Shown piece by piece: positions 2,309 through 62,053 of a stretch of 64,000 nt of DNA. The notes beneath the pieces are model-generated. The model saw only the letters and a program-made list of their open reading frames with translations, was not told where the DNA came from and did not search any database. The first letter of the stretch is position 1. Each line of letters opens with the position of its first letter. The translations under genes were made by a program, and so were the position numbers. The stretch is from Escherichia coli (GTDB lineage Bacteria; Pseudomonadota; Gammaproteobacteria; Enterobacterales; Enterobacteriaceae): NCBI RefSeq assembly GCF_965641715.1, contig NZ_OZ282453.1. One strand, given 5' to 3'.

Positions 2309-2324
2309 AATTATTAAGTGACGA

Positions 2325-3392
2325 TTATTTCTTTTGGCATATCAAAAGTGTATGCCCAACGCCTAAATTATCGTGGCGCTCTGCTACCTGGAATCCTGCT
2401 TTATTCAGATAGTCGTAAAATTTCTCTGCACTATAGAAACGGCTGTTACCGTTTGCCATGCAGGTAAAATAAAGTGAGGACGCGTTCAGGCTAAACGATG
2501 CTGCTTCAAACCGCTGCGCATCCCAGAACAACTCCATGATGCAAACTTTTGCGCCAGGCTTCATTACGCTGGCAATTTTGCTGAGTATGCTAATTATTTG
2601 TTCGGGTGAAAAACAGTCTAAAAATTGGCTCATCCACCAGATATCAGCCTCGCCCGGTAATGGGGCATCGCTTAGCATATCCACCGCATGGAAATCTATG
2701 CGATCAGAAAAACCTGCATTCGCGATATTTTCTTTCGCTAGTACGATTTGTTGTGGCAGATCTAATAACGTCACGGCGATGTTTTCATTGTATTTGCAGC
2801 AACGCAAAGCCCACTTACCCGTATTACCGCCTACATCGTACAATGTTGTGGGGTTGTTGGCGAATACATAAGGCAGTGCGGCGTTAAATGCGCCATCTGA
2901 ATAGTAATGATCAAACGCAAACCAGCTTTCACGAGCGGCGTCTGGTAATTGCGAAAGTGCCGGATATATCGTCGACCAGTCGCCAAATACTTTTAACCCG
3001 GAAGGTTTTCCTTCATTGAGTGAATCGGCGAGGAAGAAGAGCCCCTGGTAACAGACATCCTGGGTGAAATCCATATTCACGCGAGTCATAGTGTCATGCA
3101 GGAGGTAATGACCGATTTTCGCCAGGTAATAAATTCCCTCTTTACAGGTAATAATTCGCCCGCTTAAGCCCATATCTAACAGAACGCTGGCAGCATATTC
3201 GTTGATATGGCTATGTTCGGTGATATCAGCCAGCGTTGCGCCATGTTTGCCTTGCCGATCCAGATATGAAAGTACACCCGCATTACGTAGGCAGAGTGCT
3301 GTTTGAAAAAGCATAGGGGCAAAGGCAATGCGTTGAGCTTCGGTAATCGCATCCAGTGCGCTAAGAGAATCCTGTTCGTACATGTTGGGCAC
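2325..3392 (-). CDS. Class I SAM-dependent O-methyltransferase
   Basis: ORF track; glycine-rich SAM-binding motif LYDVGGNTGKWA and acidic LLDLP motif. Confidence 0.8.
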   Translation of the reverse strand: MPNMYEQDSLSALDAITEAQRIAFAPMLFQTALCLRNAGVLSYLDRQGKHGATLADITEHSHINEYAASVLLDMGLSGRIITCKEGIYYLAKIGHYLLHDTMTRVNMDFTQDVCYQGLFFLADSLNEGKPSGLKVFGDWSTIYPALSQLPDAARESWFAFDHYYSDGAFNAALPYVFANNPTTLYDVGGNTGKWALRCCKYNENIAVTLLDLPQQIVLAKENIANAGFSDRIDFHAVDMLSDAPLPGEADIWWMSQFLDCFSPEQIISILSKIASVMKPGAKVCIMELFWDAQRFEAASFSLNASSLYFTCMANGNSRFYSAEKFYDYLNKAGFQVAERHDNLGVGHTLLICQKK

Positions 3393-3451
3393 AACCTGTT
3401 AAGAGGGAATTAAATTATTATCGGACCGCAACGGCCCGACTTTAGGAAGAA

Positions 3452-3829
3452 TTATAAATCTGCGCCCGCTGACAAATTCAGTTGAATATCTTTGTCGAGA
3501 TTGCGGACCCAGCGATTGTAGTTTTTATGAATTTGTCCGCCTGACGCTTGTAGGTTCTGGCTATTTTCATAATTGATATCGTAGCTGGATGCCGTGTAGT
3601 TAATGCGTATTTCCGCTGAATGATCGCGTGACTGTTGACGTGCTTTAATTATGCCTTGTCCGGCTTCGGACATAATCCATTTGCGTTCAACGCCAGCTTT
3701 CAGAATCGCTTTTTTCACTTGTTCCTGGGTATGACCAGCGCTGACGGTTGAGTGAACCTGATCAATTGGCGCAGTACGCGCGCAACCTGCTAAAGCACCC
3801 ACAACAGCAATAGCCGCAAACCATTTCAT
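3452..3829 (-). CDS. Predicted lipoprotein of unknown function
   Basis: ORF 3452..3841; internal start MKWFAAIAVVGALAGC gives a signal peptide with lipobox LAGC. Confidence 0.55.
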   Translation of the reverse strand: MKWFAAIAVVGALAGCARTAPIDQVHSTVSAGHTQEQVKKAILKAGVERKWIMSEAGQGIIKARQQSRDHSAEIRINYTASSYDINYENSQNLQASGGQIHKNYNRWVRNLDKDIQLNLSAGADL

Positions 3830-4159
3830 GTAATGTCTCATTAGAACCCCATTAAAGTATTGTTTTTACGAGTAAAGCAAGATTTAACTGTAATTGCTGG
3901 CATCACTATTCTTTATTTAGAGAAAAAATTACTTGTGAGATAAGTCAGTAAGTGCACATCAGAGTAAAAATCTCTGAAATGACTAAATTACTGCCAGCAG
4001 GGACCAACTATAAGTGAGTGAGAAAAATGAGGCAATAAAAATAACACAATGTTATCAGTGCATTCTTTGAGAAGGATTTAATCGCTATTCGGCGTTTATA
4101 TATATTTGACTTAAGGAATGGTTTTTTTAAATTAATTTTCTGAATAATGTTTCATCATT

Positions 4160-4202
4160 TCCTCAAATCAAATGGCCACTGTTAGATAAACGGTGGCCAT
4201 TG
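4160..4202 (-). terminator. Hairpin (GGCCAC..GTGGCC) immediately downstream of yhhT
   Basis: Inverted repeat aatggccactgttagataaacggtggccatt read directly. Confidence 0.45.
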
Positions 4203-4220
4203 CCTGCTCAGGAGGTGCTA

Positions 4221-5270
4221 TTAACCCGGTAACCGACTTTTCGGTCTGCCCGGCCCCAGTAAAATCGCCAGTTTGCTACCGCCTTTGGTGGTTTCCATCC
4301 AGATTTTACACACGCTGGTTAATGGCACCGAAAGTAGCATCCCTACCGGGCCGAGCAGCCATCCCCAAATTAACAATGAAAGAAATACCACCATGGTGGA
4401 CATCCCCAGGCGATGGCCCATCATCCGTGGTTCTAAAATATTGCCGATAACCATATGGACAACTAAAAACAATGCGCCGACCAGAATACATTCGTAAACA
4501 CCATTAAACAGCAGCACCTGAATCATTGGCGGTACGGCGGAAATTACCGCGCCGATATTGGGCACGTAGTTGAGCAAAAACGCCAGTACTGCCCACATCA
4601 GCGCAAACTGCACCCCCATCAGCTCCAGCCCCAGCCAGACGATGACACCTGCCCATAAACTGAGTAGCGTCTTCAATGCAAGATAGTGCGAAACACCTTT
4701 TAAGGCGCGGTGTAGTCCGGCGATATGAATCTGTGGATTATCCAATGCAAAACGCATTTTGTAAGGGACGTGGCGCACTTCAAACAGCATAAAAACTACG
4801 GTCATCACCAGCAAAAGCACGCTCGCCATTGCCCCGGAAAGCCCGGTCATTAGCGCTGTGGTGAAGGTAACCACTTTTTCCGAGTCCATCCGCTGCAGCA
4901 TTCGCTCCGGCGACATATGCAAATTAAGAAAAGGCAACATCTCCTGCAATTTAAAAAGTTTGCGCGTCAGCTCCTTATTAAACTTCGGCAGCATAGAGAT
5001 AAATTCGTTAAACGATGCCGCCAGTACGCCGACCAGCGCGGTTAGTGTGATCAGCATCACCACCACCACAATCGTAATGGCAACGGGGCGTTTTACTCCC
5101 CGTCGAATAAACCAGGTAACGAGCGGGTTGAGGACGATGGCAAAAAACAGCGCCAGTAACAGCTGCACAATGATATCTGCCGCTGCGTGAATGCCCGCGA
5201 GGATCACTACCAGCGAGGCCAGCTTGAGCAGAATGTGCATGCCCGTTTTATCGGGTTGAGGGGTTTCCAT
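4221..5270 (-). CDS. yhhT: AI-2E/PerM-family membrane transporter
   Basis: ORF 4221..5351; start METPQPDKTG chosen to match the 349-aa K-12 protein. Confidence 0.9.
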   Translation of the reverse strand: METPQPDKTGMHILLKLASLVVILAGIHAAADIIVQLLLALFFAIVLNPLVTWFIRRGVKRPVAITIVVVVMLITLTALVGVLAASFNEFISMLPKFNKELTRKLFKLQEMLPFLNLHMSPERMLQRMDSEKVVTFTTALMTGLSGAMASVLLLVMTVVFMLFEVRHVPYKMRFALDNPQIHIAGLHRALKGVSHYLALKTLLSLWAGVIVWLGLELMGVQFALMWAVLAFLLNYVPNIGAVISAVPPMIQVLLFNGVYECILVGALFLVVHMVIGNILEPRMMGHRLGMSTMVVFLSLLIWGWLLGPVGMLLSVPLTSVCKIWMETTKGGSKLAILLGPGRPKSRLPG

Positions 5271-5401
5271 TGGGGCTTCCTTGTGACTTTTTGTATTAAG
5301 TGTAGCGGGAGTCACGCCAGCAATATTCTGATTCTTACTGCTGATTTTCACGTCAGCACGTGGTAAAAATGAAACACTGTTGTAAAAATGTGGTGATCCT
5401 C

Positions 5402-6619
5402 ATGCCCGAACCCGTAGCCGAACCCGCGCTAAACGGATTGCGCCTGAATTTGCGCATTGTCTCCATTGTCATGTTTAACTTCGCCAGCTACCTCACCATC
5501 GGGTTGCCGCTCGCTGTATTACCGGGCTATGTCCATGATGTGATGGGCTTTAGCGCTTTCTGGGCAGGATTGGTTATCAGCCTGCAATATTTTGCCACCT
5601 TGCTGAGCCGTCCTCATGCCGGACGTTACGCCGATTTGCTGGGCCCCAAAAAGATTGTCGTCTTCGGTTTATGCGGCTGCTTTTTGAGCGGTCTGGGATA
5701 TCTGACGGCAGGATTAACCGCCAGTCAGCCCGTCATCAGCCTGTTATTACTTTGCCTGGGACGCGTCATCCTTGGGATTGGGCAAAGTTTTGCCGGAACG
5801 GGATCGACCCTGTGGGGCGTTGGCGTGGTTGGCTCGCTGCATATCGGGCGGGTGATTTCGTGGAACGGCATTGTCACTTACGGGGCGATGGCGATGGGTG
5901 CGCCGTTAGGCGTCGTGTTTTATCACTGGGGCGGCTTGCAGGCGTTAGCGTTAATCATTATGGGCGTGGCGCTGGTGGCCATTTTGTTGGCGATCCCGCG
6001 TCCGACGGTAAAAGCCAGTAAAGGCAAACCGCTGCCGTTTCGCGCGGTGCTTGGGCGCGTCTGGCTGTACGGTATGGCGCTGGCGTTGGCTTCCGCCGGA
6101 TTTGGCGTCATCGCCACCTTTATCACGCTGTTTTATGACGCTAAAGGTTGGGACGGTGCGGCTTTCGCGCTGACGCTGTTTAGCTGTGCGTTTGTCGGTA
6201 CGCGTTTGTTATTCCCTAACGGCATTAACCGTATCGGCGGCTTAAACGTAGCGATGATTTGCTTTAGCGTTGAGATAATCGGCCTGCTACTGGTTGGCGT
6301 GGCGACTATGCCGTGGATGGCGAAAATCGGCGTCTTACTGGCGGGGGCCGGGTTTTCGCTGGTGTTCCCGGCATTGGGTGTAGTGGCGGTAAAAGCGGTT
6401 CCGCAGCAAAATCAGGGGGCGGCGCTGGCAACTTACACCGTATTTATGGATTTATCGCTTGGCGTGACTGGACCACTGGCTGGGCTGGTGATGAGCTGGG
6501 CGGGCGTACCGGTGATTTATCTGGCGGCGGCGGGACTGGTCGCAATCGCGTTATTACTGACGTGGCGATTAAAAAAACGGCCTCCGGAACACGTCCCTGA
6601 GGCCGCCTCATCATCTTAA
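5402..6619 (+). CDS. yhhS: MFS transporter
   Basis: ORF 5360..6619; start MPEPVAEP matches the 405-aa K-12 protein. Confidence 0.9.
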   Translation: MPEPVAEPALNGLRLNLRIVSIVMFNFASYLTIGLPLAVLPGYVHDVMGFSAFWAGLVISLQYFATLLSRPHAGRYADLLGPKKIVVFGLCGCFLSGLGYLTAGLTASQPVISLLLLCLGRVILGIGQSFAGTGSTLWGVGVVGSLHIGRVISWNGIVTYGAMAMGAPLGVVFYHWGGLQALALIIMGVALVAILLAIPRPTVKASKGKPLPFRAVLGRVWLYGMALALASAGFGVIATFITLFYDAKGWDGAAFALTLFSCAFVGTRLLFPNGINRIGGLNVAMICFSVEIIGLLLVGVATMPWMAKIGVLLAGAGFSLVFPALGVVAVKAVPQQNQGAALATYTVFMDLSLGVTGPLAGLVMSWAGVPVIYLAAAGLVAIALLLTWRLKKRPPEHVPEAASSS

Positions 6620-6622
6620 AAC

Positions 6623-7180
6623 TTACTGAATAACCAGCGTATTAATGATGTTTTCTGCGGTGGTCTGCGCTTTTTGCTGATCGTCAGCTGGCAGAGTAAT
6701 TTGCATGGTCAGCAGTTGATTACCCACGTTACCCAGAATAACGGAAGAGTACGCCGTCTGGCCTTTCGCGGAGATAATACTGTCTAACTGCTGCATTTTG
6801 TGACCTTTCAGCTCAATGGCTTTATTGGTTACCACTTGCAGCTGCGGATCGCGGCTACGTTGCTGATCTTCCAGACGCTTCGCCAGCACCGCCAGATCTT
6901 CTTTCGGATCATCGCCCATGATGACGATGACTGCTTTCTGCCCGGTGGCGTCGGACCAGACATGCATGTTATTGGCCTGCGTTCCCAGCTTACCGCTCTG
7001 GTCGGTCATATCCGCTGGCAGCGAGAAACTTAACTTGCCATCAAGCAGGTTGACGGGATTCCCGGTAGCGTTACTTTCCGCGACCGAACCCTGCGCCGTA
7101 GCGTTAGTGTCTTTATCATCACAGGCCGCAAGCCCCATAACCAGCAGGCCAATTCCGACATATTTAACCAGATTGCGCAT
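6623..7180 (-). CDS. dcrB: Periplasmic lipoprotein DcrB
   Basis: ORF 6623..7234; start [20 protein letters not shown] with lipobox. Confidence 0.9.
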
Positions 7181-7252
7181 TGACTTCTTCCTTTCGATAA
7201 ACGGCCATAACGGCTCATTCATCCATCTTATCACAACTCTGATAACGAACCT

Positions 7253-7918
7253 TTAACTCGCCTGCAAAGCGTTGATTTCGGATTTATCTGCCAGTCTTTT
7301 CAACAGCATATTGAGTAATACGCCATACATTGGCAGGAAGAAAACGATACTGATTAACACTTTGAAACAGTAATCGACCAGCGCGATTTCCATCCAGTGT
7401 TCAGCCATAAAGGCATCCGGGCTACGCCAGAAGGCAATGAAGAAAAAGGCCAGCGTGTCGCTGACGTTACCGAACAGTGTGGACGCTGTCGGTGCCAGCC
7501 ACCAGCGGCGACTCTGACGCAGGCGGTTAAAAACGTGCACGTCGAGGATCTGTCCCAGCGCGTAGGCCATGAAACTGGCGGTGGCGATACGGGCGACAAA
7601 CAGGTTGAAGTGAGCGAGTGCGCCGAATCCCTGCCAGGAGCCCATATAGAACAGCGACGAGATGACGTAGGAGATCAGCAACGCCGGGATCATCACCGCA
7701 AAGATGATACGACGGGCCAGCGGTGCGCCAAAAATACGCACGGTCAGGTCAGTAGCAAGGAAAATAAACGGAAAGCTAAACGCGCCCCAGGTGGTATGGA
7801 AACCAAAAATGGAGACGGGAAGCTGAACCAGATAGTTACTGGAGGTGATCACCAGAAGATGAAATAACGATAACCAGAACAACGCCTTATAGCGTTGCGT
7901 TTGCGAGAAAACGTTCAT
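7253..7918 (-). CDS. yhhQ: Queuosine-precursor transporter
   Basis: 221-aa membrane ORF, same length as K-12 YhhQ. Confidence 0.9.
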   Translation of the reverse strand: MNVFSQTQRYKALFWLSLFHLLVITSSNYLVQLPVSIFGFHTTWGAFSFPFIFLATDLTVRIFGAPLARRIIFAVMIPALLISYVISSLFYMGSWQGFGALAHFNLFVARIATASFMAYALGQILDVHVFNRLRQSRRWWLAPTASTLFGNVSDTLAFFFIAFWRSPDAFMAEHWMEIALVDYCFKVLISIVFFLPMYGVLLNMLLKRLADKSEINALQAS

Positions 7919-28195: not shown

Positions 28196-29083
28196 ATGTC
28201 ATCATCCCGTCCGGTGTTCCGCTCGCGCTGGCTGCCTTATCTGCTGGTCGCGCCGCAGCTCATCATCACCGTTATCTTTTTTATCTGGCCTGCGGGCGAA
28301 GCGTTGTGGTACTCGCTGCAAAGCGTCGATCCGTTTGGTTTCTCCAGCCAGTTTGTCGGCCTGGATAACTTCGTCGCGCTGTTTCATGACAGCTACTATC
28401 TCGACTCCTTCTGGACGACGATAAAATTCAGCACCTTTGTCACCGTCAGCGGTTTGCTGGTATCGCTGTTCTTTGCGGCGCTGGTGGAGTACATCGTGCG
28501 CGGCAGTCGTTTCTATCAAACCTTGATGCTGCTGCCGTATGCCGTGGCTCCCGCCGTTGCCGCCGTATTGTGGATCTTCCTGTTTAACCCCGGTCGCGGG
28601 CTGATCACCTATTTTCTCGCTGAGTTCGGCTACGACTGGAACCACGCGCAAAATAGCGGTCAGGCGATGTTTCTGGTGGTGTTTGCCTCAGTATGGAAGC
28701 AAATCAGCTACAACTTCCTGTTCTTCTATGCCGCGCTGCAATCCATTCCCCGTTCGTTGATCGAAGCCGCAGCCATCGACGGTGCAGGGCCGATTCGCCG
28801 CTTCTTTAAGATTGCGCTGCCGCTTATCGCCCCGGTGAGTTTCTTCCTGCTGGTAGTGAACCTGGTGTATGCCTTCTTCGACACCTTCCCGGTGATCGAC
28901 GCCGCCACGTCCGGCGGGCCGGTTCAGGCCACCACGACGCTGATTTATAAGATCTACCGCGAAGGCTTTACCGGACTGGATCTGGCTTCGTCTGCCGCGC
29001 AGTCGGTGGTGTTGATGTTCCTCGTCATCGTGCTGACGGTGGTGCAGTTCCGCTATGTTGAAAGCAAGGTGCGTTACCAATGA
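28196..29083 (+). CDS. ugpA: G3P ABC permease
   Basis: 295 aa; synteny. Confidence 0.95.
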
Positions 29084-39384: not shown

Positions 39385-39607
39385 AGCTCAACGGCATCTT
39401 TGAAGCCTGCCTTTTTGCAGGCTTCCTCGCTCGCTCCGGTCGCGTGCTGATGTACGCTTCCGGGGTTTTGCAGCGTCGTTAGCACAATGCGATGCAATTG
39501 ATTTAGTGTATATCTAATAATTGTAAACAAGCACTGTTTTCCCCGGGAAGGTTCTGATGCGTCCGTGTTAAACTAAGAGAATCTATCTCTTTTGTACCTT
39601 CAGGACG

Positions 39608-40603
39608 ATGAAAAAGAAAAGACCCGTACTTCAGGATGTGGCTGACCGTGTAGGCGTGACCAAAATGACGGTCAGCCGTTTTTTACGCAACCCGGAGCAG
39701 GTTTCCGTCGCTCTACGCGGCAAGATTGCCGCGGCTCTTGATGAACTGGGCTATATTCCCAATCGTGCGCCCGATATCCTCTCTAACGCCACCAGCCGGG
39801 CGATTGGCGTCCTGTTACCTTCTCTCACCAACCAGGTTTTCGCGGAAGTATTACGCGGAATCGAAAGCGTCACCGACGCGCACGGTTATCAGACCATGCT
39901 GGCGCACTACGGTTATAAACCGGAAATGGAGCAAGAACGTCTCGAATCCATGCTCTCATGGAATATCGACGGACTGATCCTCACCGAACGTACCCACACG
40001 CCGCGCACCTTAAAGATGATTGAAGTGGCGGGGATTCCCGTGGTGGAACTCATGGACAGCCAGTCGCCGTGCCTCGATATCGCCGTCGGTTTTGATAACT
40101 TTGAAGCGGCACGCCAGATGACCACCGCCATTATTGCTCGCGGGCATCGCCACATTGCCTATCTCGGCGCACGTCTCGACGAACGTACTATCATCAAACA
40201 GAAGGGATACGAACAGGCGATGCTGGATGCAGGCCTGGTGCCATATAGCGTGATGGTTGAGCAATCTTCTTCTTACTCTTCCGGTATTGAACTGATTCGC
40301 CAGGCGCGGCGGGAATATCCGCAGCTGGATGGCGTGTTCTGTACTAATGATGATCTGGCGGTCGGCGCGGCGTTTGAATGTCAGCGTCTGGGGTTAAAAG
40401 TTCCTGACGATATGGCGATTGCCGGTTTCCACGGTCATGACATTGGTCAGGTGATGGAGCCACGACTTGCGAGCGTGCTGACGCCGCGTGAGCGGATGGG
40501 CAGTATTGGCGCTGAACGCCTGCTGGCGCGTATTCGTGGCGAATCTGTGACACCGAAAATGTTAGATTTAGGTTTCACCTTGTCACCGGGCGGATCTATT
40601 TAA
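39608..40603 (+). CDS. gntR: LacI-family gluconate repressor
   Basis: 331 aa; N-terminal HTH. Confidence 0.95.
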   Translation: MKKKRPVLQDVADRVGVTKMTVSRFLRNPEQVSVALRGKIAAALDELGYIPNRAPDILSNATSRAIGVLLPSLTNQVFAEVLRGIESVTDAHGYQTMLAHYGYKPEMEQERLESMLSWNIDGLILTERTHTPRTLKMIEVAGIPVVELMDSQSPCLDIAVGFDNFEAARQMTTAIIARGHRHIAYLGARLDERTIIKQKGYEQAMLDAGLVPYSVMVEQSSSYSSGIELIRQARREYPQLDGVFCTNDDLAVGAAFECQRLGLKVPDDMAIAGFHGHDIGQVMEPRLASVLTPRERMGSIGAERLLARIRGESVTPKMLDLGFTLSPGGSI

Positions 40604-40741
40604 GCCCACAAATTTGAAGTAGCTCACACTTATACACTTAAGGCACGGATGGATATTGCTTCTGATAATGTCCGGCTGGACAATGTTACCGATAACAGTT
40701 ACCCGTAACATTTTTAATTCTTGTATTGTGGGGGCACCACT

Positions 40742-41269
40742 TTGAGCACGACTAACCATGATCACCACGTTTACGTCTTGATGGGCGTATCGGGCAGCGG
40801 CAAATCTGCGGTCGCAAGTGAAGTGGCGCATCAACTTCATGCCGCGTTTCTTGATGGCGATTTCCTCCATCCACGGCGCAATATCGAAAAAATGGCGTCT
40901 GGCGAACCGCTGAATGACGACGATCGCAAACCGTGGTTGCAGGCGCTGAACGACGCTGCGTTTGCTATGCAGCGCACTAATAAAGTGTCGCTGATCGTCT
41001 GTTCTGCATTGAAAAAACACTATCGCGACTTGCTGCGTGAAGGTAATCCGAATCTCTCTTTCATCTACCTGAAAGGCGATTTTGATGTGATTGAAAGCCG
41101 CCTGAAAGCGCGCAAAGGCCATTTCTTTAAAACCCAAATGTTGGTGACGCAGTTTGAAACGCTGCAGGAGCCGGGTGCGGACGAAACCGATGTACTGGTG
41201 GTGGATATCGATCAACCGCTGGAAGGTGTTGTGGCAAGCACCATTGAGGTTATTAAAAAAGGCAAATAA
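40742..41269 (+). CDS. gntK: Gluconokinase
   Basis: ORF 40721..41269; start placed at in-frame TTG to match the 175-aa K-12 protein (start codon uncertain); Walker A GVSGSGKS. Confidence 0.85.
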   Translation: MSTTNHDHHVYVLMGVSGSGKSAVASEVAHQLHAAFLDGDFLHPRRNIEKMASGEPLNDDDRKPWLQALNDAAFAMQRTNKVSLIVCSALKKHYRDLLREGNPNLSFIYLKGDFDVIESRLKARKGHFFKTQMLVTQFETLQEPGADETDVLVVDIDQPLEGVVASTIEVIKKGK

Positions 41270-41272
41270 GTA

Positions 41273-42613
41273 GTGACTACATTAACGCTTGTTTTAACAG
41301 CAGTAGGGTCTGTTTTACTGCTGCTGTTTTTAGTCATGAAGGCGCGTATGCACGCTTTCCTGGCTTTGATGGTGGTGTCCATGGGGGCTGGCCTTTTTTC
41401 CGGTATGCCGCTCGATAAAATCGCAGCGACGATGGAAAAAGGGATGGGAGGCACCCTCGGCTTCCTGGCGGTGGTTGTCGCCCTGGGAGCTATGTTTGGC
41501 AAGATCTTACATGAAACCGGCGCAGTCGATCAGATTGCCGTCAAAATGCTCAAATCCTTCGGTCACAGCCGCGCGCATTATGCCATCGGCCTTGCGGGGC
41601 TGGTCTGTGCGCTACCGCTGTTCTTTGAAGTGGCGATTGTTCTGCTGATTAGCGTTGCTTTCTCAATGGCGCGCCACACCGGTACGAACCTGGTGAAGCT
41701 GGTAATCCCATTATTCGCAGGCGTGGCGGCAGCGGCGGCGTTCCTGGTGCCAGGGCCAGCGCCAATGCTGCTGGCATCGCAGATGAACGCCGATTTTGGC
41801 TGGATGATCCTGATTGGCCTGTGTGCGGCAATTCCGGGAATGATTATTGCCGGGCCGCTGTGGGGTAACTTCATCAGCCGTTACGTTGAGCTGCATATTC
41901 CTGATGACATCAGCGAGCCGCATCTCGGCGAAGGCAAAATGCCGTCCTTCGGATTCAGCCTGTCGCTGATCCTGCTGCCGCTGGTGCTGGTGGGGCTGAA
42001 AACCATTGCCGCGCGTTTTGTGCCAGAAGGCTCTACCGCTTACGAATGGTTCGAGTTTATTGGTCATCCGTTTACCGCGATTCTGGTTGCTTGTCTGGTA
42101 GCGATTTATGGCCTGGCAATGCGTCAGGGCATGCCAAAAGACAAAGTGATGGAGATTTGCGGTCACGCGCTGCAACCGGCGGGGATCATTCTGCTGGTGA
42201 TTGGTGCGGGCGGCGTGTTCAAACAGGTGCTGGTTGACTCTGGCGTAGGTCCGGCACTGGGCGAAGCGTTAACCGGCATGGGCCTGCCGATTGCTATCAC
42301 CTGCTTCGTGCTGGCCGCTGCAGTGCGCATCATTCAGGGTTCTGCAACCGTTGCCTGTTTAACGGCGGTGGGACTGGTGATGCCGGTTATTGAACAACTG
42401 AACTACTCCGGTGCGCAAATGGCGGCGCTGTCGATTTGTATCGCCGGTGGTTCGATTGTTGTCAGCCACGTTAACGACGCTGGTTTCTGGTTGTTCGGTA
42501 AATTTACCGGCGCGACCGAAGCCGAAACGCTGAAAACCTGGACCATGATGGAAACCATCCTCGGCACTGTCGGTGCCATCGTTGGGATGATTGCGTTCCA
42601 GCTGTTGAGTTAA
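41273..42613 (+). CDS. gntU: Low-affinity gluconate transporter
   Basis: 446 aa GntP-family permease. Confidence 0.95.
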   Translation: MTTLTLVLTAVGSVLLLLFLVMKARMHAFLALMVVSMGAGLFSGMPLDKIAATMEKGMGGTLGFLAVVVALGAMFGKILHETGAVDQIAVKMLKSFGHSRAHYAIGLAGLVCALPLFFEVAIVLLISVAFSMARHTGTNLVKLVIPLFAGVAAAAAFLVPGPAPMLLASQMNADFGWMILIGLCAAIPGMIIAGPLWGNFISRYVELHIPDDISEPHLGEGKMPSFGFSLSLILLPLVLVGLKTIAARFVPEGSTAYEWFEFIGHPFTAILVACLVAIYGLAMRQGMPKDKVMEICGHALQPAGIILLVIGAGGVFKQVLVDSGVGPALGEALTGMGLPIAITCFVLAAAVRIIQGSATVACLTAVGLVMPVIEQLNYSGAQMAALSICIAGGSIVVSHVNDAGFWLFGKFTGATEAETLKTWTMMETILGTVGAIVGMIAFQLLS

Positions 42614-42625
42614 TTACTGCGACAA

Positions 42626-42670
42626 ATTACTGCGAGCTTGCTCGCAGTAATTCATTTCTCTTTTCTCCTC
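42626..42670 (+). terminator. Rho-independent terminator after gntU
   Basis: Hairpin attactgcgagcttgctcgcagtaat followed by T-rich tract. Confidence 0.65.
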
Positions 42671-42752
42671 TCTTCATCTTTTTGATCTCTCTCGCAAATT
42701 TACCTGCAAATAATCCGTTCTAATCACTGCCTAAAGATCGCAGGAGATAAAG

Positions 42753-44849
42753 ATGGAAAAGCACGCAGCTGAATTGCTTTTACAGCGGATGTTAGGAAAT
42801 ACCACCGCTACTTTCAGGGAAGGGCAATGGGAAGCCATAGACGCGGTGGTGAACCAACGGCGAAAACTGCTGGTTGTCCAACGCACTGGCTGGGGGAAAA
42901 GTGCTGTGTACTTCATCGCCAGTAAAATCTTCCGCGATCGCGGCGCTGGCCCGACAATTATCATCTCTCCTTTGCTTGCCCTGATGCGTAACCAGGTTGC
43001 CGCCGCTGAACGGTTAGGTATTACGGCTGAAACGTTGAATTCTACAAACAGAGAAGAATGGCAGCGCATTAGCGATAAGTTGCTGCAAGGTGAGGTCGAT
43101 TGCTTGCTGGTTTCCCCGGAACGTTTGGCAAACCAGGACTTTATCGAAACGGTTTTATATCCTATAGCCGATCGTATTGGCTTGCTTGTGGTCGACGAGG
43201 CGCACTGCATCTCTGATTGGGGCCACGATTTTCGCCCGGATTACCGACGTATATTAGATATTTTGCGCCAACTACCTGCGAATACCCCTGTTCTGGGTAC
43301 AACCGCGACAGCGAATAACCGTGTCGTTGAGGATATCCGTCAGCAATTGGGTGACATTGTGATTCAGCGTGGAACGCTGGCTCGCGAAAGTTTGGCGCTT
43401 GATGCCTTAGTCTTAGGTGAACAGTCATCCCGTCTGGCATGGTTAGCAACGGTTATCCCTCAGTTTTCCAAATCGGGAATTGTTTATACCCTGACTACTC
43501 GCGATGCCGAACTTGTCGCCGAGTGGTTAAGGAAAAATGGTATCAGTGCATTTGCTTACTACAGCGGCGTGACTTGCGAAGGCGCGGAAGATTCTAATAC
43601 TGCCAGGGAATATCTGGAGCAGGCGTTGCTGGCAAATAAAATTAAAGTGCTGGTTGCGACAACGGCGCTGGGAATGGGCTTTGACAAACCGGATTTGGGG
43701 TTTGTTATTCATTACCAGATGCCAGGTTCGATAGTTGGTTACTACCAACAGGTGGGGCGTGCCGGTCGCGGTATCGATTCTGCTGTTGGCATACTGCTTT
43801 GCGGCAGTGAAGACCGTGCTATTCATAAATTCTTCCGTGAAAGCGCCTTTCCTGCGGAGGCGCAAATTCATGAAATACTCAACGTACTTAGCGTGAATGA
43901 CGGTCTTACCTTACGAGGCATTGAACAACGGACGAATCTCCGTTATGGGCAAATAGAAAAAGCACTGAAATTATTGGTAGCTGAAAATCCATCGCCTGTG
44001 GTGTATACCGAGAAATTATGGCGCAGAACAATTGTCAGTTTTTCTCCTGACCATGAACGAATTAACCATTTGATGAATCAGAGAAAAAGTGAGCTGGCAG
44101 ACGTTGAAAGCTATATCACGACCAAGGAGTGCAAAATGCAATTTCTGCGCCGCGCACTCGATGAGCCAGGTGCCGAACATTGTGGTAAATGTAGCAGTTG
44201 TCTTCAGCATCCGTTGTTGTCGCCCGACATTGATAGCGGCTTACTCCATGCGGCAAACTTATTTATTAAACACGCTGACCTGCCATTAAATCTCAATAAA
44301 CAGGTGGCAGCTGGGGCTTTTACGCAATACGGATTTAAAGGGAACTTGCCTGCGAGTTTACAAGGATCTACGGGGCGAATCCTTTCTCGTTGGGGAGATT
44401 CCGGGTGGGGAAAGCAGGTAGCACAGGAGAAAAAAACGGGGCGATTCAGTGATGAACTGGTGGAGGCATGTGCGGAAATGGTTCGCCAACGCTGGAATCC
44501 GCATCCTGAACCAACCTGGGTATGCTGCGTTCCTTCATTAAAGCACCTCGACCTGGTTCCTGATTTTGCCCGGCGACTGGCGGCGAAACTTGGCTTACCT
44601 TTTATTGATGCCATTGAAAAAGTCGTGGACAATCCACCGCAGAAAATGCAGCAAAACCGTTTCCACCAGTGTCAAAATCTCGACGGGGCGTTTGTGATTA
44701 CCCCTCCTTTGATGCCTGGTCCGGCGTTGCTGGTTGACGATATCGTGGATTCTGCATGGACGCTGACAGTTCTGACAGCACTGTTACGCCAGGCAGGTTG
44801 CCCGACGGTTTATCCTCTTGCCCTTGCTTCTACCTCGGTAAAAAATTGA
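42753..44849 (+). CDS. RecQ-family helicase fused to C-terminal phosphoribosyltransferase-like domain (698 aa); candidate toxin/effector
   Basis: RecQ motifs GWGKS, VVDEAHCISDWGHDFRPDY, GTTATA, QQVGRAGRG; C-terminal PRTase-type motif LLVDDIVDSAWTLT. Confidence 0.8.
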   Translation: MEKHAAELLLQRMLGNTTATFREGQWEAIDAVVNQRRKLLVVQRTGWGKSAVYFIASKIFRDRGAGPTIIISPLLALMRNQVAAAERLGITAETLNSTNREEWQRISDKLLQGEVDCLLVSPERLANQDFIETVLYPIADRIGLLVVDEAHCISDWGHDFRPDYRRILDILRQLPANTPVLGTTATANNRVVEDIRQQLGDIVIQRGTLARESLALDALVLGEQSSRLAWLATVIPQFSKSGIVYTLTTRDAELVAEWLRKNGISAFAYYSGVTCEGAEDSNTAREYLEQALLANKIKVLVATTALGMGFDKPDLGFVIHYQMPGSIVGYYQQVGRAGRGIDSAVGILLCGSEDRAIHKFFRESAFPAEAQIHEILNVLSVNDGLTLRGIEQRTNLRYGQIEKALKLLVAENPSPVVYTEKLWRRTIVSFSPDHERINHLMNQRKSELADVESYITTKECKMQFLRRALDEPGAEHCGKCSSCLQHPLLSPDIDSGLLHAANLFIKHADLPLNLNKQVAAGAFTQYGFKGNLPASLQGSTGRILSRWGDSGWGKQVAQEKKTGRFSDELVEACAEMVRQRWNPHPEPTWVCCVPSLKHLDLVPDFARRLAAKLGLPFIDAIEKVVDNPPQKMQQNRFHQCQNLDGAFVITPPLMPGPALLVDDIVDSAWTLTVLTALLRQAGCPTVYPLALASTSVKN

Positions 44850-46051
44850 TGAATCTTTCAGCCAATGCACAAGCAACTCTCCTGCTAACCAGCGATTTTT
44901 CTCGCGCGGCGGCGAGTGAGTATAAACCTCTTAGTAATAGTGAATGGGGGAAGTTTGCATTATGGCTGAAGCACCAACGTATCAGTCCCGCCGAGCTTCT
45001 GGTGCCGCAACCGCAAGAGAAACTTACAGGCTGGAGCGATCCGCGTATTTCTCAGGAGCGTATTCTTGGCTTGCTGGCGCGTGGTCATAGTCTGGCGTTG
45101 GCGGTAGATAAGTGGCAACGCGCCGGTTTATGGATCTTAACCCGCGGAGATGCTGATTATCCCGTTCGCTTGAAAAACCGATTGCGAACGGATGCACCTC
45201 CCGTTTTATTTGGCTGCGGGAATAAAGCATTACTGCAAGCGGAAGGTATGGCGATTGTTGGCTCGCGAGATGCTCCGACTGACGATTTGCGCTATACCCA
45301 ACAACTGGCCGCGAAACTGGCCCAACAGGGGATTTGCGTTATCTCTGGTGGTGCGCGAGGTATTGATGAATGTGCAATGGCGTCGGCACTGGAGGCCGGG
45401 GGAACTGCCGTTGGCGTATTAGCTGATAGCTTGTTAAAAACGAGTACGTTAGTGAAATGGCGTGAAGGGCTTATAGCAGGCAACCTGGTGTTGATTTCGC
45501 CGTTTTACCCAGAGGTACGTTTCACCGTCGGCAATGCGATGGCGCGAAATAAATATATTTATTGCCTTGCTGAAAGCGCAATGGTTGTACGTGCGGGAAT
45601 GACCGGTGGAACGATAACCGGGGCGATGGAGGCATTAAAACATCAGTGGCTGCCTGTGCAGGTTAAACCAAATCAGGATATGCAATCAGCCAATTCACGA
45701 TTAGTAGAAAATGGGGCGTCATGGAGTGCTGAACAGGCTGAGAATGTGACGATCAGACTGCCAGACGTTCCTGGGCTGATGTATGACAGAGCACTCCGTA
45801 ACGCTCAACCAGAACTGTTTTCGCTGCATGAAGATGACGCAAATTACGCAGTAATGCCCGCGTATACGCCTGTCGATTTTTATCAACTCTTTGTGGCGGA
45901 ACTGGCGATCCTTGCAAAGGAATCGATAAGTATTGAAAGGCTGGCGTCTTGTACTGGTTTAACCATCGAACAAATTAGTGTGTGGCTGAACCGCGCAGAA
46001 GAAGAGGGAAGGGTTATCCGATTGGGCGAAGGTCATTATCAGTTCAGGTAA
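44849..46051 (+). CDS. DprA/Smf-like (SLOG Rossmann) protein with C-terminal winged helix (400 aa); candidate antitoxin/partner
   Basis: ORF 44756..46051; ATG at 44849 overlaps upstream stop (TGATG); DprA-like GSRD and ISGGARGID motifs. Confidence 0.75.
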   Translation: MNLSANAQATLLLTSDFSRAAASEYKPLSNSEWGKFALWLKHQRISPAELLVPQPQEKLTGWSDPRISQERILGLLARGHSLALAVDKWQRAGLWILTRGDADYPVRLKNRLRTDAPPVLFGCGNKALLQAEGMAIVGSRDAPTDDLRYTQQLAAKLAQQGICVISGGARGIDECAMASALEAGGTAVGVLADSLLKTSTLVKWREGLIAGNLVLISPFYPEVRFTVGNAMARNKYIYCLAESAMVVRAGMTGGTITGAMEALKHQWLPVQVKPNQDMQSANSRLVENGASWSAEQAENVTIRLPDVPGLMYDRALRNAQPELFSLHEDDANYAVMPAYTPVDFYQLFVAELAILAKESISIERLASCTGLTIEQISVWLNRAEEEGRVIRLGEGHYQFR

Positions 46052-46096
46052 TAAAACAGGTGCCGCGTCTGGTTGTGTGCAGCACCTGTTTGAACC

Positions 46097-46690
46097 TTAC
46101 CCCTTCATCCACATTCGAATGCCGTCGAGGAACATCTGGGTTGCCATCATCACCAGAATCAATCCCATCAGGCGTTCAAGTGCGTTCACCCCTTTCTCGC
46201 CCAGCAGACGTAAAAATAGCGAAGACTGTAGCAGGATGACAAAGGTGCCGCCCCAGGCCAGCAGCAGAGCAATCACCAGATGTCCCATCTGATTCGGGTA
46301 CTGATGAGACAACAACATCAGCGTGGCGAGAATAGTTGGCCCGGCGACCAGCGGAATTGCCAGCGGCACGATAAATGGCTCTTCACCTGCCGGAAGCCCG
46401 CTGCTATTTCCTGAAGCGCTGGGGAAAATCATCTTAATGGCAATTAGAAACAGAATGATGCCGCCAGAAATGGAGACGGTTTCTGCTCGCAGGCTGAGAA
46501 ATGCCAGAATTTTCTCACCCGCAAACAGGAACACCAGCATCACCAGGAGAGCAATAAGCAACTCTCGCACCATGATTGCCCGCCGTCTTTTCGGTTCAGT
46601 ATGTTTCAGTACGGACATGAAAATAGGTAGGTTTCCGAGCGGATCCATAATCAGGATCAATAAAACTGCTGCAGAAATGATTTCATTCAT
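46097..46690 (-). CDS. yhgN: MarC-family membrane protein
   Basis: 197 aa; synteny next to asd. Confidence 0.9.
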   Translation of the reverse strand: MNEIISAAVLLILIMDPLGNLPIFMSVLKHTEPKRRRAIMVRELLIALLVMLVFLFAGEKILAFLSLRAETVSISGGIILFLIAIKMIFPSASGNSSGLPAGEEPFIVPLAIPLVAGPTILATLMLLSHQYPNQMGHLVIALLLAWGGTFVILLQSSLFLRLLGEKGVNALERLMGLILVMMATQMFLDGIRMWMKG

Positions 46691-57742: not shown

Positions 57743-59260
57743 ATGGACAGAATGATGCCAAATAGAAAATGGATTTTGACCTCGCTGATAATGACTTTTT
57801 TCGGCATCCCCATACTGGCGCAATTTTTGGCAGCGGTTGTTGCCATGCTGGGTGTCGGGCTTACCGGTATTATTGAAGTTTGTAATATCCTTATCACGCC
57901 AACAATTTATCTTCTACTCAACGTCTTTATGCTGACGCTGGGGGCGATAATAATATTTTTCTCTGGTCGCGTGTGGGCCGGTGATAGCGCGCCAGAAAAC
58001 AGAGAAATAGCCGTCTGGCGGCAATGCTTTTTTCTCTTACCCGCGCTATTAACCTTGGTTGGCTGGATAATCACGCTACATCTGGCAGATTATCAATTTC
58101 GCCAGATGGGAGCTGGTTGGTTGGCAAACCTTATGCTTCCCTGGTTGGGCGTTTTTTTAGTCTCATTAGTGGGTGGTGAGTACTGGTGGATGGTCATTAT
58201 TCCCGTTGGGGCGCATATCAGTTTTTCGCTGGGATACGCCTGGCCGACCAGATATCCTTTATCCGGCACGTCCGGACTACGTTGCCGTAACTTACTCCTG
58301 TTTCTACTTATCTTACTTGGTATTGTCGCCGGGTATCAGGCCCATTTATATAAGCAGCAAAATCCTGGTGTCGGTGTACGCGAAAATATTGATATCTGGG
58401 CCTGGCGACCCGATAAACTCAATAATCGACTGACGCCGCTGCGTGGCAAACCGCAAATTCAGTTTAGGCAAAACTGGCCGCGAATCGATGGCGCCACGGC
58501 TGCGTACCCAATTTATGCTTCTGCATTTTATGCATTAAGTGTAATACCAGAGGATTTTCACGTTTGGGATTATCTGGAAAACTCTCGTACGCCAGAAGCA
58601 TATAACAAAATCGTTAAGGGCGATGCTGATATTATTTTCGTGGCGCAACCTTCCGGTGGGCAAAAAAAACGTGCAAAGGAATCTGGTGTCACTTTGGTGT
58701 ACACCCCCTTTGCCCGTGAAGCATTCGTTTTCATCGTCAATGCGGATAATCCGGTTAATTCCCTGACTGAACAACAGGTGCGTGACATTTTCAGTGGTGC
58801 AATTACCAATTGGCGTACTGTTGGCGGTAACGATCAGGAGATCCAGACCTGGCAGCGCCCGGAAGACTCTGGCAGCCAGACAGTGATGCAATCACAGGTC
58901 ATGAAAAATGTCCGCATGATCTCGCCGCAGGAAACGGAAGTGGCAAGCGTGATGGAGGGAATGATTAAAGTCGTTGCCGAATACCGTAATACAAACAACG
59001 CAATAGGCTATACCTTCCGCTATTACGCGACGCAAATGAATGCCGATAAAAATATAAAACTGCTAGCGATTAACGGTATTGCACCGACTGCGGAAAATAT
59101 TCGCAATGGCAAATATGCGTACATCGTCGATGCATTTATGGTGACGAGAGAAAATACAACGTCAGAAACACAAAAACTGGTCGAATGGTTTTTAACGCCG
59201 CAGGGGCAGAGTCTGGTAGAAGATGTGGGATATGTGCCGCTGTATCCAACAATGGAATAA
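57743..59260 (+). CDS. Polytopic membrane domain fused to PstS-like periplasmic binding domain (505 aa)
   Basis: N-terminal ~200 aa with several hydrophobic segments; C-terminal ~300 aa paralogous to the next gene. Confidence 0.7.
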   Translation: MDRMMPNRKWILTSLIMTFFGIPILAQFLAAVVAMLGVGLTGIIEVCNILITPTIYLLLNVFMLTLGAIIIFFSGRVWAGDSAPENREIAVWRQCFFLLPALLTLVGWIITLHLADYQFRQMGAGWLANLMLPWLGVFLVSLVGGEYWWMVIIPVGAHISFSLGYAWPTRYPLSGTSGLRCRNLLLFLLILLGIVAGYQAHLYKQQNPGVGVRENIDIWAWRPDKLNNRLTPLRGKPQIQFRQNWPRIDGATAAYPIYASAFYALSVIPEDFHVWDYLENSRTPEAYNKIVKGDADIIFVAQPSGGQKKRAKESGVTLVYTPFAREAFVFIVNADNPVNSLTEQQVRDIFSGAITNWRTVGGNDQEIQTWQRPEDSGSQTVMQSQVMKNVRMISPQETEVASVMEGMIKVVAEYRNTNNAIGYTFRYYATQMNADKNIKLLAINGIAPTAENIRNGKYAYIVDAFMVTRENTTSETQKLVEWFLTPQGQSLVEDVGYVPLYPTME

Positions 59261-59285
59261 CGCTCGAGAGAAAGGAATCAGCGAG

Positions 59286-60278
59286 ATGAATAAATTCACC
59301 GGTGTTTTACTATTAGGCACGGCGTTACTGGCGGGATGTGTCGACCGGGAAGGGTACTATAACAGCGTCAGGGAAGAAGAGAGCCATGGACTGACGTCTC
59401 TGCGGGGGCAACCTGCATTACGTTACAGCGATGATTGGTCAAGATGGCCGAGAGTGTACGGCGCTACAGCCTTATACCCGCTGTATGCCTCCGCGTATTA
59501 TAAATTAGTACCCGAGCCAAAAGATAAGGATCGAACCTCGCTGGCCTGGCAGGCGTATGGTTTGCAGCAAACCCGAACAGCTGAAGCCTACGATAGTCTG
59601 ATTAAAGGTTCCGCGACGGTTATTTTTGTTGCACAACCGTCGGAAGGACAGAAAAAACGTGCAGAAGAAGCGGGTGTTAAACTGAAATATACCGCTTTCG
59701 CCCGCGAAGCCTTTGTCTTTATCGTTGATATTAATAACCCGGTAAATTCTCTCTCTGAGCACCAGGTTAAAGATATTTTTAGCGGCAAAACTAGCCGCTG
59801 GAATAAAGTAGGTGGTAGTGACGAACATATAAAAGTCTGGCAGCGCCCTGAAGATTCTGGAAGCCAAACGATTATGAAGGGATTGGTTATGCAAGACACC
59901 CCAATGCTGCCAGCTAAAAAATCCACTGTGATTGATCTTATGGGCGGTTTAATTACTGAAGTTGCCGACTATCAAAACACGCCATCTTCCATTGGGTACA
60001 CCTTCCACTATTACGTCACTCGTATGAATGACAATATGCTCAAAATGCGCAAGCAGATTAAACTTTTGGCTATAAATGGCGTTGCGCCTACCGAGGAAAA
60101 TATCCGCAACGGCACTTATCCATACATTGTGGATGCCTATATGGTGACGCGTGAAAATCCCACGCCGGAAACGCAGAAATTTGTTGACTGGTTTATAAGT
60201 CAGCAGGGGCAACAGTTGGTAGAGGATGTGGGGTATGTGCCGCTGTATGAAGCATCCCCCGAATCATCAGGACAATAA
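59286..60278 (+). CDS. PstS-like periplasmic binding-protein lipoprotein (about 330 aa)
   Basis: ORF 59223..60278; start MNKFTGVLLLGTALLAGC (lipobox); about 60% identical to the C-terminal domain of the upstream gene. Confidence 0.7.
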   Translation: MNKFTGVLLLGTALLAGCVDREGYYNSVREEESHGLTSLRGQPALRYSDDWSRWPRVYGATALYPLYASAYYKLVPEPKDKDRTSLAWQAYGLQQTRTAEAYDSLIKGSATVIFVAQPSEGQKKRAEEAGVKLKYTAFAREAFVFIVDINNPVNSLSEHQVKDIFSGKTSRWNKVGGSDEHIKVWQRPEDSGSQTIMKGLVMQDTPMLPAKKSTVIDLMGGLITEVADYQNTPSSIGYTFHYYVTRMNDNMLKMRKQIKLLAINGVAPTEENIRNGTYPYIVDAYMVTRENPTPETQKFVDWFISQQGQQLVEDVGYVPLYEASPESSGQ

Positions 60279-60402
60279 TGATGAATATAATCAGACTTTA
60301 TATTTATCCGTTATTTCTCGGCTTTGTTATTGTGCCGTTGTTGGTGTGGCCGATGGTGGTTGCGCTGGCTGCTTGTATTATCGTTGACAAAGTGCACTTT
60401 GT

Positions 60403-60437
60403 TCATGCCTGATGCGGCGTGAACGCCTTATCAGGCC
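60403..60437. repeat. REP element
   Basis: gcctgatgcggcgtgaacgccttatcaggcctac. Confidence 0.7.
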
Positions 60438-60547
60438 TACAAAATCATGCAAATTCAATATATTGCATAAACCACGCATCAGGCAATTTTGTGTTTGTCA
60501 TCAGTCTCAGGCCAGATTGAAATCTGACCTGATCACCTTACGTTAAT

Positions 60548-62053
60548 TTATGACGCCAGCGACAACTTCTGCTGCGTATATTCCACCAGCCACTGACTCA
60601 CACGAGATTGTTGATCCGCATTCAGCCACATGCCTTGTTTTGTGCGACGCCACAGGGCATCGTCGGCGCGGCGGACCCATTCGTGATCCACCAGGTATTT
60701 CAGTTCCGCTTCGTAGAACTCATGACCGAAATCCTCCCCGAGGTCGCTTATCGCCCCCGCATTGCCGAGCAGCAGCTCGCTGTTGCTGCCGTAAGTGCGT
60801 GCGTAATGACGCGCCAGCGATTCAGTCAGGAATGGATAGCGACGGCGCAGACGAGCGGCATAATCGTCGCGGTCGCCTTCAATGGCACCACCCGGTAGCA
60901 CGCTCTCTTTCGTCCACGCCGGGCCAATACCCTGATAATACGGCGTCAGTTTTTCCAGCGCATGTTCCGCCAGTTTGCGGTAGGTGGTCAGCTTACCGCC
61001 GAATACCGACAGCAGCGGTGCTTTGCCATTTTCATCATGAATATCAAGGGTGTAATCACGGGTAATAGCCTGCGGCGAGTCGGACTCATCATCACACAGC
61101 GGACGCACACCGGAGTAGGTCCAGACGATATCGTCACGGCTTAACTGCTTTTTAAAGTGCGTGTTATACACTTTCAGCAGGTAATTGATTTCACTCTCTT
61201 CAATCTTCACTGCTTTCGGATCACCTTTGTATTCCACATCGGTGGTGCCGATGATGGAAAACTCGTCCATCCACGGGATCACGAACACAATGCGTTTATC
61301 TTCGTTTTGCAGAATGTAGGCCTGCTTTTGGGTATGCACGCGCGGCACCACAATATGGCTGCCTTTGATCAGGCGAATGCCATAAGGCGAAGGCAGATGC
61401 ATCCCGTCGTCGAAGAACTGTTTCACCCACGGGCCGGTGGCGTTAACCAGGCCGCGCGCTTGCCAGCTATATTTTTTGCCGGTATCGATATCTTCCGCTT
61501 CCACAATCCACAGGCCGTTTTCGCGGCGAGCAGAGGTGGCGCGAGTCCGAGTAAGCACTTCGCCGCCTTTACGCACCACCATCTGGGCGTTGGCGAGTAC
61601 CAGACGGGCGTCGTCTACCCAACAGTCAGAATATTCGAATCCGCGCTTAATTTCCGGTTTTAACACTGAATTTGCGCCAAAACGCAAACCAGTTGATCCC
61701 GGCAGGCTGGTGCGTTTACCCAGATGATCGTACATAAACAGACCAATGCGAATCATCCACGCCGGGCGCAGATGCGGACGATGTGGCAGGCGAAAACGCA
61801 TCGGGAAGGCGATATGCGGGGCCATTTTCAGCAGCACTTCACGTTCAGCCAGCGCCTCGCTGACCAGGCGGAATTCATAGTGCTCAAGGTAGCGCAGGCC
61901 ACCGTGAATGAGTTTTGAACTGGCGGAAGAGGTCGCGCAAGCGAGATCCTGCGCCTCCAGCATCAGCACGGATAAACCGCGTCCAGCGGCGTCTGCCGCG
62001 ATACCAGCACCATTGATGCCGCCCCCTATCACAATCAGATCTTTGGTTTCCAT
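60548..62053 (-). CDS. glpD: Aerobic glycerol-3-phosphate dehydrogenase
   Basis: ORF 60548..62068; start METKDLIVIGGGINGAG (FAD-binding) gives 501 aa. Confidence 0.97.
   Translation of the reverse strand: METKDLIVIGGGINGAGIAADAAGRGLSVLMLEAQDLACATSSASSKLIHGGLRYLEHYEFRLVSEALAEREVLLKMAPHIAFPMRFRLPHRPHLRPAWMIRIGLFMYDHLGKRTSLPGSTGLRFGANSVLKPEIKRGFEYSDCWVDDARLVLANAQMVVRKGGEVLTRTRATSARRENGLWIVEAEDIDTGKKYSWQARGLVNATGPWVKQFFDDGMHLPSPYGIRLIKGSHIVVPRVHTQKQAYILQNEDKRIVFVIPWMDEFSIIGTTDVEYKGDPKAVKIEESEINYLLKVYNTHFKKQLSRDDIVWTYSGVRPLCDDESDSPQAITRDYTLDIHDENGKAPLLSVFGGKLTTYRKLAEHALEKLTPYYQGIGPAWTKESVLPGGAIEGDRDDYAARLRRRYPFLTESLARHYARTYGSNSELLLGNAGAISDLGEDFGHEFYEAELKYLVDHEWVRRADDALWRRTKQGMWLNADQQSRVSQWLVEYTQQKLSLAS

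Follow-up and report, generated by a model that had tools for sequence, protein, structure and literature searches.

A two-gene cassette between gntU and yhgN in Escherichia coli corresponds to the rqlHI (PsyrTA) toxin-antitoxin operon

We analysed a 64,000-nucleotide stretch of an Escherichia coli genome (NCBI RefSeq assembly GCF_965641715.1, contig NZ_OZ282453.1), called the window below, and within it a two-gene cassette that lies between gntU and yhgN. The first gene encodes RqlH (PsyrT), a RecQ-like helicase joined to a phosphoribosyltransferase (PRTase) domain at its C terminus, and the second encodes the DprA-like protein RqlI (PsyrA). We conclude with high confidence that the cassette is the chromosomal E. 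coli rqlHI operon, identical with PsyrTA, a large non-canonical toxin-antitoxin pair. An original prediction, made from the DNA letters, had proposed a defence or toxin-antitoxin module at this site.

The open reading frame (ORF) list of the window places the genes where they had been predicted, with one frame at 42753-44849 (+, 698 aa) and a second ending at 46051 (+). They are flanked by gntU (41273-42613, +) and the convergent yhgN (46097-46690, -). The statement that K-12 lacks the cassette also proved right: gntU and yhgN of MG1655 converge across a stop-to-stop spacer of 56 bp with zero ORFs. In the window, this 56-bp spacer is replaced by 3483 bp (42614-46096). Direct comparison revealed no sequence common to the K-12 spacer and either the 3483-bp block or the cassette edges, and alignment of the window with the K-12 junction showed no target-site duplication at those edges. 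The guanine-plus-cytosine (GC) content of the cassette is 0.47-0.53, similar to the surrounding genes.

The coordinates of the cassette features are collected in Table 1. At its 5' edge the inserted block has the terminator-like hairpin of gntU, the equivalent of which was included in construct SG127 of Millman et al. 2022. A consensus sigma-70 scan of 42614-42752 found no promoter site; the region equivalent to the 5' non-coding segment of the operon was cloned as the native promoter by Millman et al. 2022. The downstream hairpin was not called by a terminator scan that depends on T-runs, but judging from its sequence it is likely a bidirectional terminator that marks the 3' edge of the block.

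Table 1. Features of the gntU-yhgN cassette (window coordinates)
Feature	Coordinates	Strand	Remarks
Terminator-like hairpin for gntU	42625..42652	+	12-bp stem, directly 3' of the gntU stop (42611-42613); terminator-scan match
Operon 5' non-coding region	42653..42752	+	Shine-Dalgarno AGGAG at ~42742-42746; presumed to hold the promoter
rqlH / psyrT, 698-aa toxin	42753..44849	+	PsyrT profile, RecQ-family core, C-terminal PRTase model
rqlI / psyrA, 400-aa antitoxin	44849..46051	+	PsyrA profile, Pfam DNA_processg_A
Hairpin AAACAGGTGC...GCACCTGTTT	46055..46083	.	Read from the sequence; flanked by the stop codons of rqlI and of the convergent yhgN (46097)

RqlH has three parts: a RecQ-family superfamily 2 (SF2) helicase core spanning aa ~20-350, a weakly matching RecQ Zn-binding region at aa 443-484 and, at aa ~540-698, a ComF-like type-I PRTase domain. 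The motifs previously noticed in this gene are all present: GWGKS (aa 46), VVDEAHCISDWGHDFRPDY (aa 146), GTTATA (aa 182), QQVGRAGRG (aa 332) and LLVDDIVDSAWTLT (aa 659). The core scores 253.9 bits with the NCBIfam model recQ_fam, above the curated cutoff of 219.8, and matches Pfam DEAD (4.9e-25) and Helicase_C (9.5e-13). A PDB sequence search with the protein aligned it to E. coli RecQ (1oyw, 4e-53) and returned no PsyrT structure. We rejected an assignment to the housekeeping RecQ itself; the TIGR01389 model gives 298 bits against a cutoff of 640, with the match confined to the helicase core (aa 9-365), and Pfam detects no HRDC domain. Another helicase considered was DpdF, as the RecQ-like core matches several DpdF profiles in PADLOC, up to 5e-93. 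This candidate was likewise rejected: RqlH reaches 150 bits with the NCBIfam DpdF equivalog, whose cutoff is 550, no dpd genes lie nearby, and the PsyrT match is far stronger.

In RqlI, a DprA/SLOG Rossmann domain spans aa 89-292 and is followed by a putative helix-turn-helix (HTH) at the C terminus. The GSRD (aa 138) and ISGGARGID (aa 165) motifs lie where a DprA/Smf-type domain had been read, and the protein matches Pfam DNA_processg_A (4.7e-51), an SLOG-type model, and the sequences of solved DprA and ShosA structures in the PDB. The winged helix that had been proposed at its C terminus was not confirmed, with Pfam HTH_26 at E=0.35 and the HTH region of CooA as best PDB match at E=1.9; a C-terminal HTH was predicted for RqlI by Russell and Mulvey (PMC4670107). 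A canonical DprA was rejected for this gene on the basis of TIGR00732 (102 bits against a cutoff of 191) and PRK10736 (79.9 against 495). The name "DNA-processing protein DprA", given by the prokaryotic genome annotation pipeline (PGAP), is a domain-level label.

The two genes are adjacent on one strand, with the toxin upstream of the antitoxin. As had been noticed, they overlap: rqlH ends in AAA AAT TGA with its stop at 44847-44849, and rqlI starts with the ATG at 44849, producing TGATG and a 1-nt overlap. This arrangement of stop and start codons suggests that RqlI is translationally coupled to rqlH. PGAP/RefSeq instead annotates rqlI as 431 aa from 44756, a 5' extension (44756-44848) that gives a 94-nt overlap with rqlH. 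The 400-aa start at 44849 is better supported, because the PsyrA profile (398 positions) aligns from residue 1, because the published RqlI is 400 aa long (PMC4670107), and because a metagenomic homolog pair of 45% identity has the same kind of stop/start coupling (GTGA). The RefSeq annotation thus probably adds 31 codons at the 5' end of rqlI.

Profile hidden Markov model and PADLOC searches of both proteins returned full-length matches to the PsyrTA pair. The PADLOC PsyrT profile matches RqlH end to end (E=0, 1065.9 bits, aa 3-697 against profile positions 5-687 of 689), and the PsyrA profile matches RqlI in the same manner (1.1e-202, 671.4 bits, aa 1-400 against positions 1-397 of 398). The cassette is thus like PsyrTA (PADLOC PDLC03928 and PDLC03927) in both profiles, in gene adjacency, in strand and in toxin-first order. 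Together with its absence from K-12 and its variable presence across E. coli, these matches support the predicted membership in the PsyrTA (RqlHI) family, and we found no evidence against this identification.

The same operon is known from extraintestinal pathogenic E. coli (ExPEC). Russell and Mulvey (PLoS Pathog 2015) described rqlH-rqlI of the ExPEC strain F11, in which RqlH has 698 aa and RqlI 400 aa (PMC4670107). F11 RqlH was reported to combine an N-terminal RecQ-like helicase with a C-terminal PRTase "unique among known helicases", and RqlI to carry a DprA-homology region, with MG1655 lacking both genes (PMC4670107). The cassette in the window resembles F11 RqlHI in species, in two-gene operon structure, in protein lengths (698/400 aa) and in the positions of K49, D148 and D663: the sites of the F11 mutants K49A, D148A and D663A/DIVD663EVME map to GWGK(49)S, VVD(148)EAH and D(663)IVD in the window protein. 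The identity with F11 rests on these lengths and residue positions, and the direct sequence comparison was made with E. coli strain 131 instead. Russell and Mulvey equated RqlHI with PsyrT/PsyrA of Sberro et al. 2013 (PMC4670107). Millman et al. 2022 listed "PsyrTA (also called RqlHI)" among defence systems, with a PRTase in the toxin and a DprA-like antitoxin.

The co-occurrence of helicase and PRTase in one polypeptide had led to the suggestion of a distinct or uncharacterised variant, which is not borne out. A new fused variant apart from both PsyrTA and ShosTA is extremely improbable: the idea goes back to a view of PsyrT as lacking a PRTase and finds no tool support, whereas the PsyrT profile already spans helicase and PRTase over the matched positions 5-687 of 689. 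The literature describes the fusion as defining RqlH (PMC4670107), and hundreds of homologs of ~700 aa carry the same C-terminal domain. The fusion of helicase and PRTase is the defining hallmark of the PsyrT/RqlH family. The accompanying division of the known systems, with PsyrTA as helicase plus DprA and ShosTA as PRTase plus DprA, was mistaken, as both toxins have a PRTase (Millman et al. 2022).

ShosT is a PRTase toxin that is not known to carry a RecQ helicase. The cassette is like ShosTA in having a DprA-like antitoxin, and RqlI matches the ShosA profile of PADLOC (2.7e-27) and the ShosA structures 9vzo and 8zva in the PDB (~4e-7). This similarity is weaker than the match to PsyrA. Membership in ShosTA was rejected, because the ShosT profile reaches E=0.028 on the C terminus of RqlH only and RqlH has a RecQ core of 350 aa.

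Published experiments on F11 establish what the pair does. In MG1655, RqlH without RqlI causes SOS induction, filamentation, a raised mutation rate and loss of viability, and RqlI rescues cells from this toxicity (PMC4670107). Toxicity requires the PRTase domain in the context of the full protein, and both D663A and DIVD663EVME abolish it (PMC4670107). RqlH and RqlI co-immunoprecipitate reciprocally; the interaction is lost with RqlH 1-509, i.e., the PRTase domain is required (PMC4670107). Reverse transcription-PCR in F11 placed rqlH and rqlI on a single transcript (PMC4670107). We infer that the allele in the window is likewise toxic and neutralised by RqlI, from its 97-99% amino acid identity to the strain 131 proteins and from the positions of K49, D148 and D663.

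Several points weigh against this reading of the cassette, in its PRTase-dependent toxicity or in the defence role that the PsyrTA name carries. Single-sequence matches of the RqlH C terminus to PRTase models are marginal (Pfam Pribosyltran, aa 605-683, independent E-value 0.0087; GntX/ComF-type NCBIfam, E 0.012), and a PDB sequence search with the region returned marginal matches only. The PRTase domain alone was found to be non-toxic and helicase-dead RqlH mutants were still harmful (PMC4670107). On the defence side, construct SG127 in Table S2 of Millman et al. 2022 (PsyrTA, E. coli STEC 1299, 3485 bp) is scored "observed defense: x". In a study of E. coli NILS69, PsyrTA was deleted natively and expressed in MG1655, with no protection and only a growth defect; this system presumably also occupies the gntU-yhgN site, as did every copy sampled in complete genomes.

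Because the sequence-only PRTase matches were marginal, we turned to a structure model based on a multiple sequence alignment, and this model was decisive. A search with RqlH aa 480-698 against 1.84 billion representative proteins found 1634 relatives, many of them ~700 aa long with the domain at the C terminus. With an alignment of 76 sequences, AlphaFold2 modelled this region at a mean predicted local distance difference test score (pLDDT) of 95.9 and a predicted TM-score (pTM) of 0.91. The top 50 Foldseek matches in the PDB are all proteins with the PRTase fold, which binds phosphoribosyl pyrophosphate (PRPP), and most are characterised PRTases. The best is Helicobacter pylori ComF (7p0h, TMq 0.52), followed by adenine, hypoxanthine-guanine and orotate PRTases and PurF. 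The PRPP-loop motif VDDIVDS lies at aa 661-667, and the loop residues L-V-D-D-x-x-D-S show little or no variation in the 76-sequence alignment, with L181, D183, D184 and S188 (numbered in the modelled fragment) invariant. The C-terminal 219 aa alone match positions 473-687 of the PsyrT profile. The assignment of a PRTase to the C terminus of RqlH, first made from a motif, holds on the strength of this model.

Taken with the F11 experiments, these features point to a possible mechanism. RqlH would be genotoxic when RqlI is absent or limiting, acting via its PRPP-binding loop (D663), and RqlI would bind RqlH through the PRTase domain and neutralise it, as published for F11. The helicase domain may serve as a DNA-directed sensor or targeting module. 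Judging by ShosT, whose toxicity needs PRPP binding, disrupts purine metabolism and is accompanied by a DNA-damage and filamentation phenotype, the PRTase may draw on PRPP to disturb the metabolism of nucleotides or DNA. In those family members that defend, phage infection could upset the balance of toxin and antitoxin and free the toxin, leading to abortive infection. The established role of the E. coli allele is toxin-antitoxin-like control of genotoxicity that affects host fitness.

Of the earlier wording "defence or toxin-antitoxin", the second half thus stands, by published experiments on a near-identical allele, and the first half is not supported for this allele, given the negative results for STEC 1299 and NILS69. 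SG127 covers the entire gntU-yhgN intergenic block: its sequence starts at the equivalent of position 42613, and its end would fall at 46097. Its first 399 nt are identical to the window at 393/399 positions, and the STEC 1299 PsyrA is identical at 392/400 residues (98%). The construct scored "v" by Millman et al. 2022 is SG128, a homolog from Bacillus sp. FJAT-29814 that protects E. coli from phages. The verified defender of the PsyrTA family therefore differs from the E. coli allele, for which phage defence is unsupported. The "defence system" label of PsyrTA rests on this distant homolog; phage tests of the E. coli allele have so far been negative.

These results bear on whether the cassette could function in E. 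coli as an abortive-infection system, in which particular phages beyond those already tried would release or activate RqlH and its PRTase would halt replication. We consider this possible and hold it only tentatively. PsyrTA is listed as a defence system with a protective Bacillus homolog, both proteins match PADLOC defence profiles end to end, and the related ShosTA defends via PRTase toxicity; the cassette also shows the variable presence and phylogroup enrichment typical of defence genes. However, two independent tests of E. coli alleles were negative, the locus lies outside defence islands and mobile elements, and no near copy was found in a search of plasmids and phages.

We mapped the distribution of the cassette across 5426 complete E. 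coli genomes. Of these, 1650 carry the 3.5-kb block, which is thus not universal; it is always chromosomal, at a median of one copy and 95.9-100% identity. All 24 full-length matches that we sampled sit between gntU and yhgN. The K-12-type empty junction occurs in 3774 genomes, and the site is thus either empty or occupied by this cassette in 5424/5426 genomes, indicating that it is not a variable hotspot. We rejected cargo of a mobile element or a defence-island hotspot as a description of the locus, in view of its core-gene neighbours, the lack of a target-site duplication, integrase or insertion sequence (IS), and the lack of alternative cargo.

This pattern of inheritance also bears on a different function, proposed in the model of Russell and Mulvey, in which RqlH and RqlI form a DNA-maintenance or DNA-uptake module of RecQ-like helicase, ComF-like PRTase and DprA-like loader of single-stranded DNA, with toxicity as a by-product of imbalance. 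The domains do parallel ComFA, ComFC and DprA: an SF2 helicase, a ComF-type PRTase whose best structural match is H. pylori ComF, and a DprA Rossmann domain. The window proteins differ from these in that the helicase is RecQ-type and fused to the PRTase, and in scoring far under the equivalog cutoffs; the best NCBIfam match of the RqlH C terminus is GntX (E 0.012). Strains deleted for rqlI are less fit in animal models, RqlH orthologs are often found unaccompanied by RqlI (PMC4670107), and the vertical-looking, single-site inheritance and flank-like GC content are also in keeping with such a module. On the other side, no transformation phenotype was detectable in ExPEC (PMC4670107), the operon is missing from 70% of E. 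coli genomes with no known deficit, no DNA-repair defect of ΔrqlHI strains has been reported, and the family is enriched beside defence genes (Millman et al. 2022). We consider such a module unlikely.

A broader non-defence interpretation, rather doubtful in our estimation, is that E. coli rqlHI is an old chromosomal module, passed on vertically at a single site, in which the helicase-PRTase targets DNA or nucleotides of the host cell itself and is tuned by RqlI; in that case the term "defence", transferred from a Bacillus homolog, misdescribes it. The empty-or-occupied polymorphism without hallmarks of mobile elements, the host-like GC content, the two negative phage tests and the in-vivo fitness phenotypes are compatible with this interpretation, but are not proof of it. 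The identification of the cassette as the rqlHI (PsyrTA) toxin-antitoxin pair is the reading that we carry forward.

Relative to F11 RqlHI, the window carries no more than an allelic variant. This allele is 100% identical to that of strain TUM13936 and 99.7-99.8% identical to those of O55:H7 and O157:H7 strains, which fits a report that PsyrTA is enriched in phylogroup E2. For comparison we used E. coli strain 131 (NZ_CP093011.1), which carries one of the alleles at 95.9% nucleotide identity and which, from its name, presumably belongs to sequence type 131 and phylogroup B2. The RqlH proteins are 97.4% and the RqlI proteins 99.2% identical in amino acid sequence (18 and 3 differences), with none of the differences at the catalytic residues tested in the published work.

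Divergence from strain 131 is unevenly spread. Nucleotide identity is 94.75% for rqlH, 98.9% for rqlI and ~97.6% for the flanking genes, and within 42753-43900, the helicase half of rqlH, 200-nt patches are only 83-91% identical. The 5' non-coding region of the operon is 86% identical to this presumed B2 strain, against the 97.6% of the flanking genes. The codon differences in rqlH comprise 87 synonymous and 18 non-synonymous changes. This uneven divergence suggests a mosaic history of the toxin gene, by recombination or different descent.

A disrupted copy of the operon is seen in a clinical isolate (NZ_OZ501598.1, 1-6600, corresponding to about 42600-44260 of the window), in which ISEcp1-blaCTX-M-15, a Tn3 remnant and IS26 lie directly upstream of a remnant of the rqlH C terminus. 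The rqlI gene is intact in this isolate, the toxin gene having been inactivated by the resistance transposon. PGAP names the remnant "ComF family protein", consistent with the PRTase assignment. The best plasmid match is a PsyrA-like DprA gene that shares 48.7% identity with the chromosomal one and lies at 39532-40830 of an E. coli plasmid of 100 kb (NZ_OX030731.1). A second, divergent PsyrTA-like lineage may be circulating on E. coli plasmids.

The operon in the window is thus already known: it was named and genetically dissected in E. coli in 2015, and in 2022 Millman et al. cloned the same intergenic block and assayed it for defence. PADLOC and DefenseFinder detect PsyrTA automatically. In RefSeq, the names "RecQ family helicase" and "DNA-processing protein DprA" mask a known toxin-antitoxin pair. 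Our literature search found no paper dedicated to the mechanism or structure of PsyrTA.

Elsewhere in the window, three regions attracted attention. An eleven-gene lipid/polyketide-like cluster (58-7589, -) adjoins yhhT; its members include a family 2 glycosyltransferase, a FabZ-like dehydratase, an AMP-binding protein, two acyl carrier proteins, an acyltransferase, a ketosynthase chain-length factor, a methyltransferase and a lipoprotein, and it is presumably similar to the aryl-polyene-type cluster found in some E. coli. Between livF and ugpB lies a gene for a 248-aa tetratricopeptide-repeat protein (28305-29051, +), where K-12 has a 398-bp spacer with no annotated gene. Between glgP and glpD (57751-60879, +), the window carries two genes for PstS-family substrate-binding proteins and a hypothetical gene, in place of which K-12 has only the short yzgL ORF, probably a deletion remnant.

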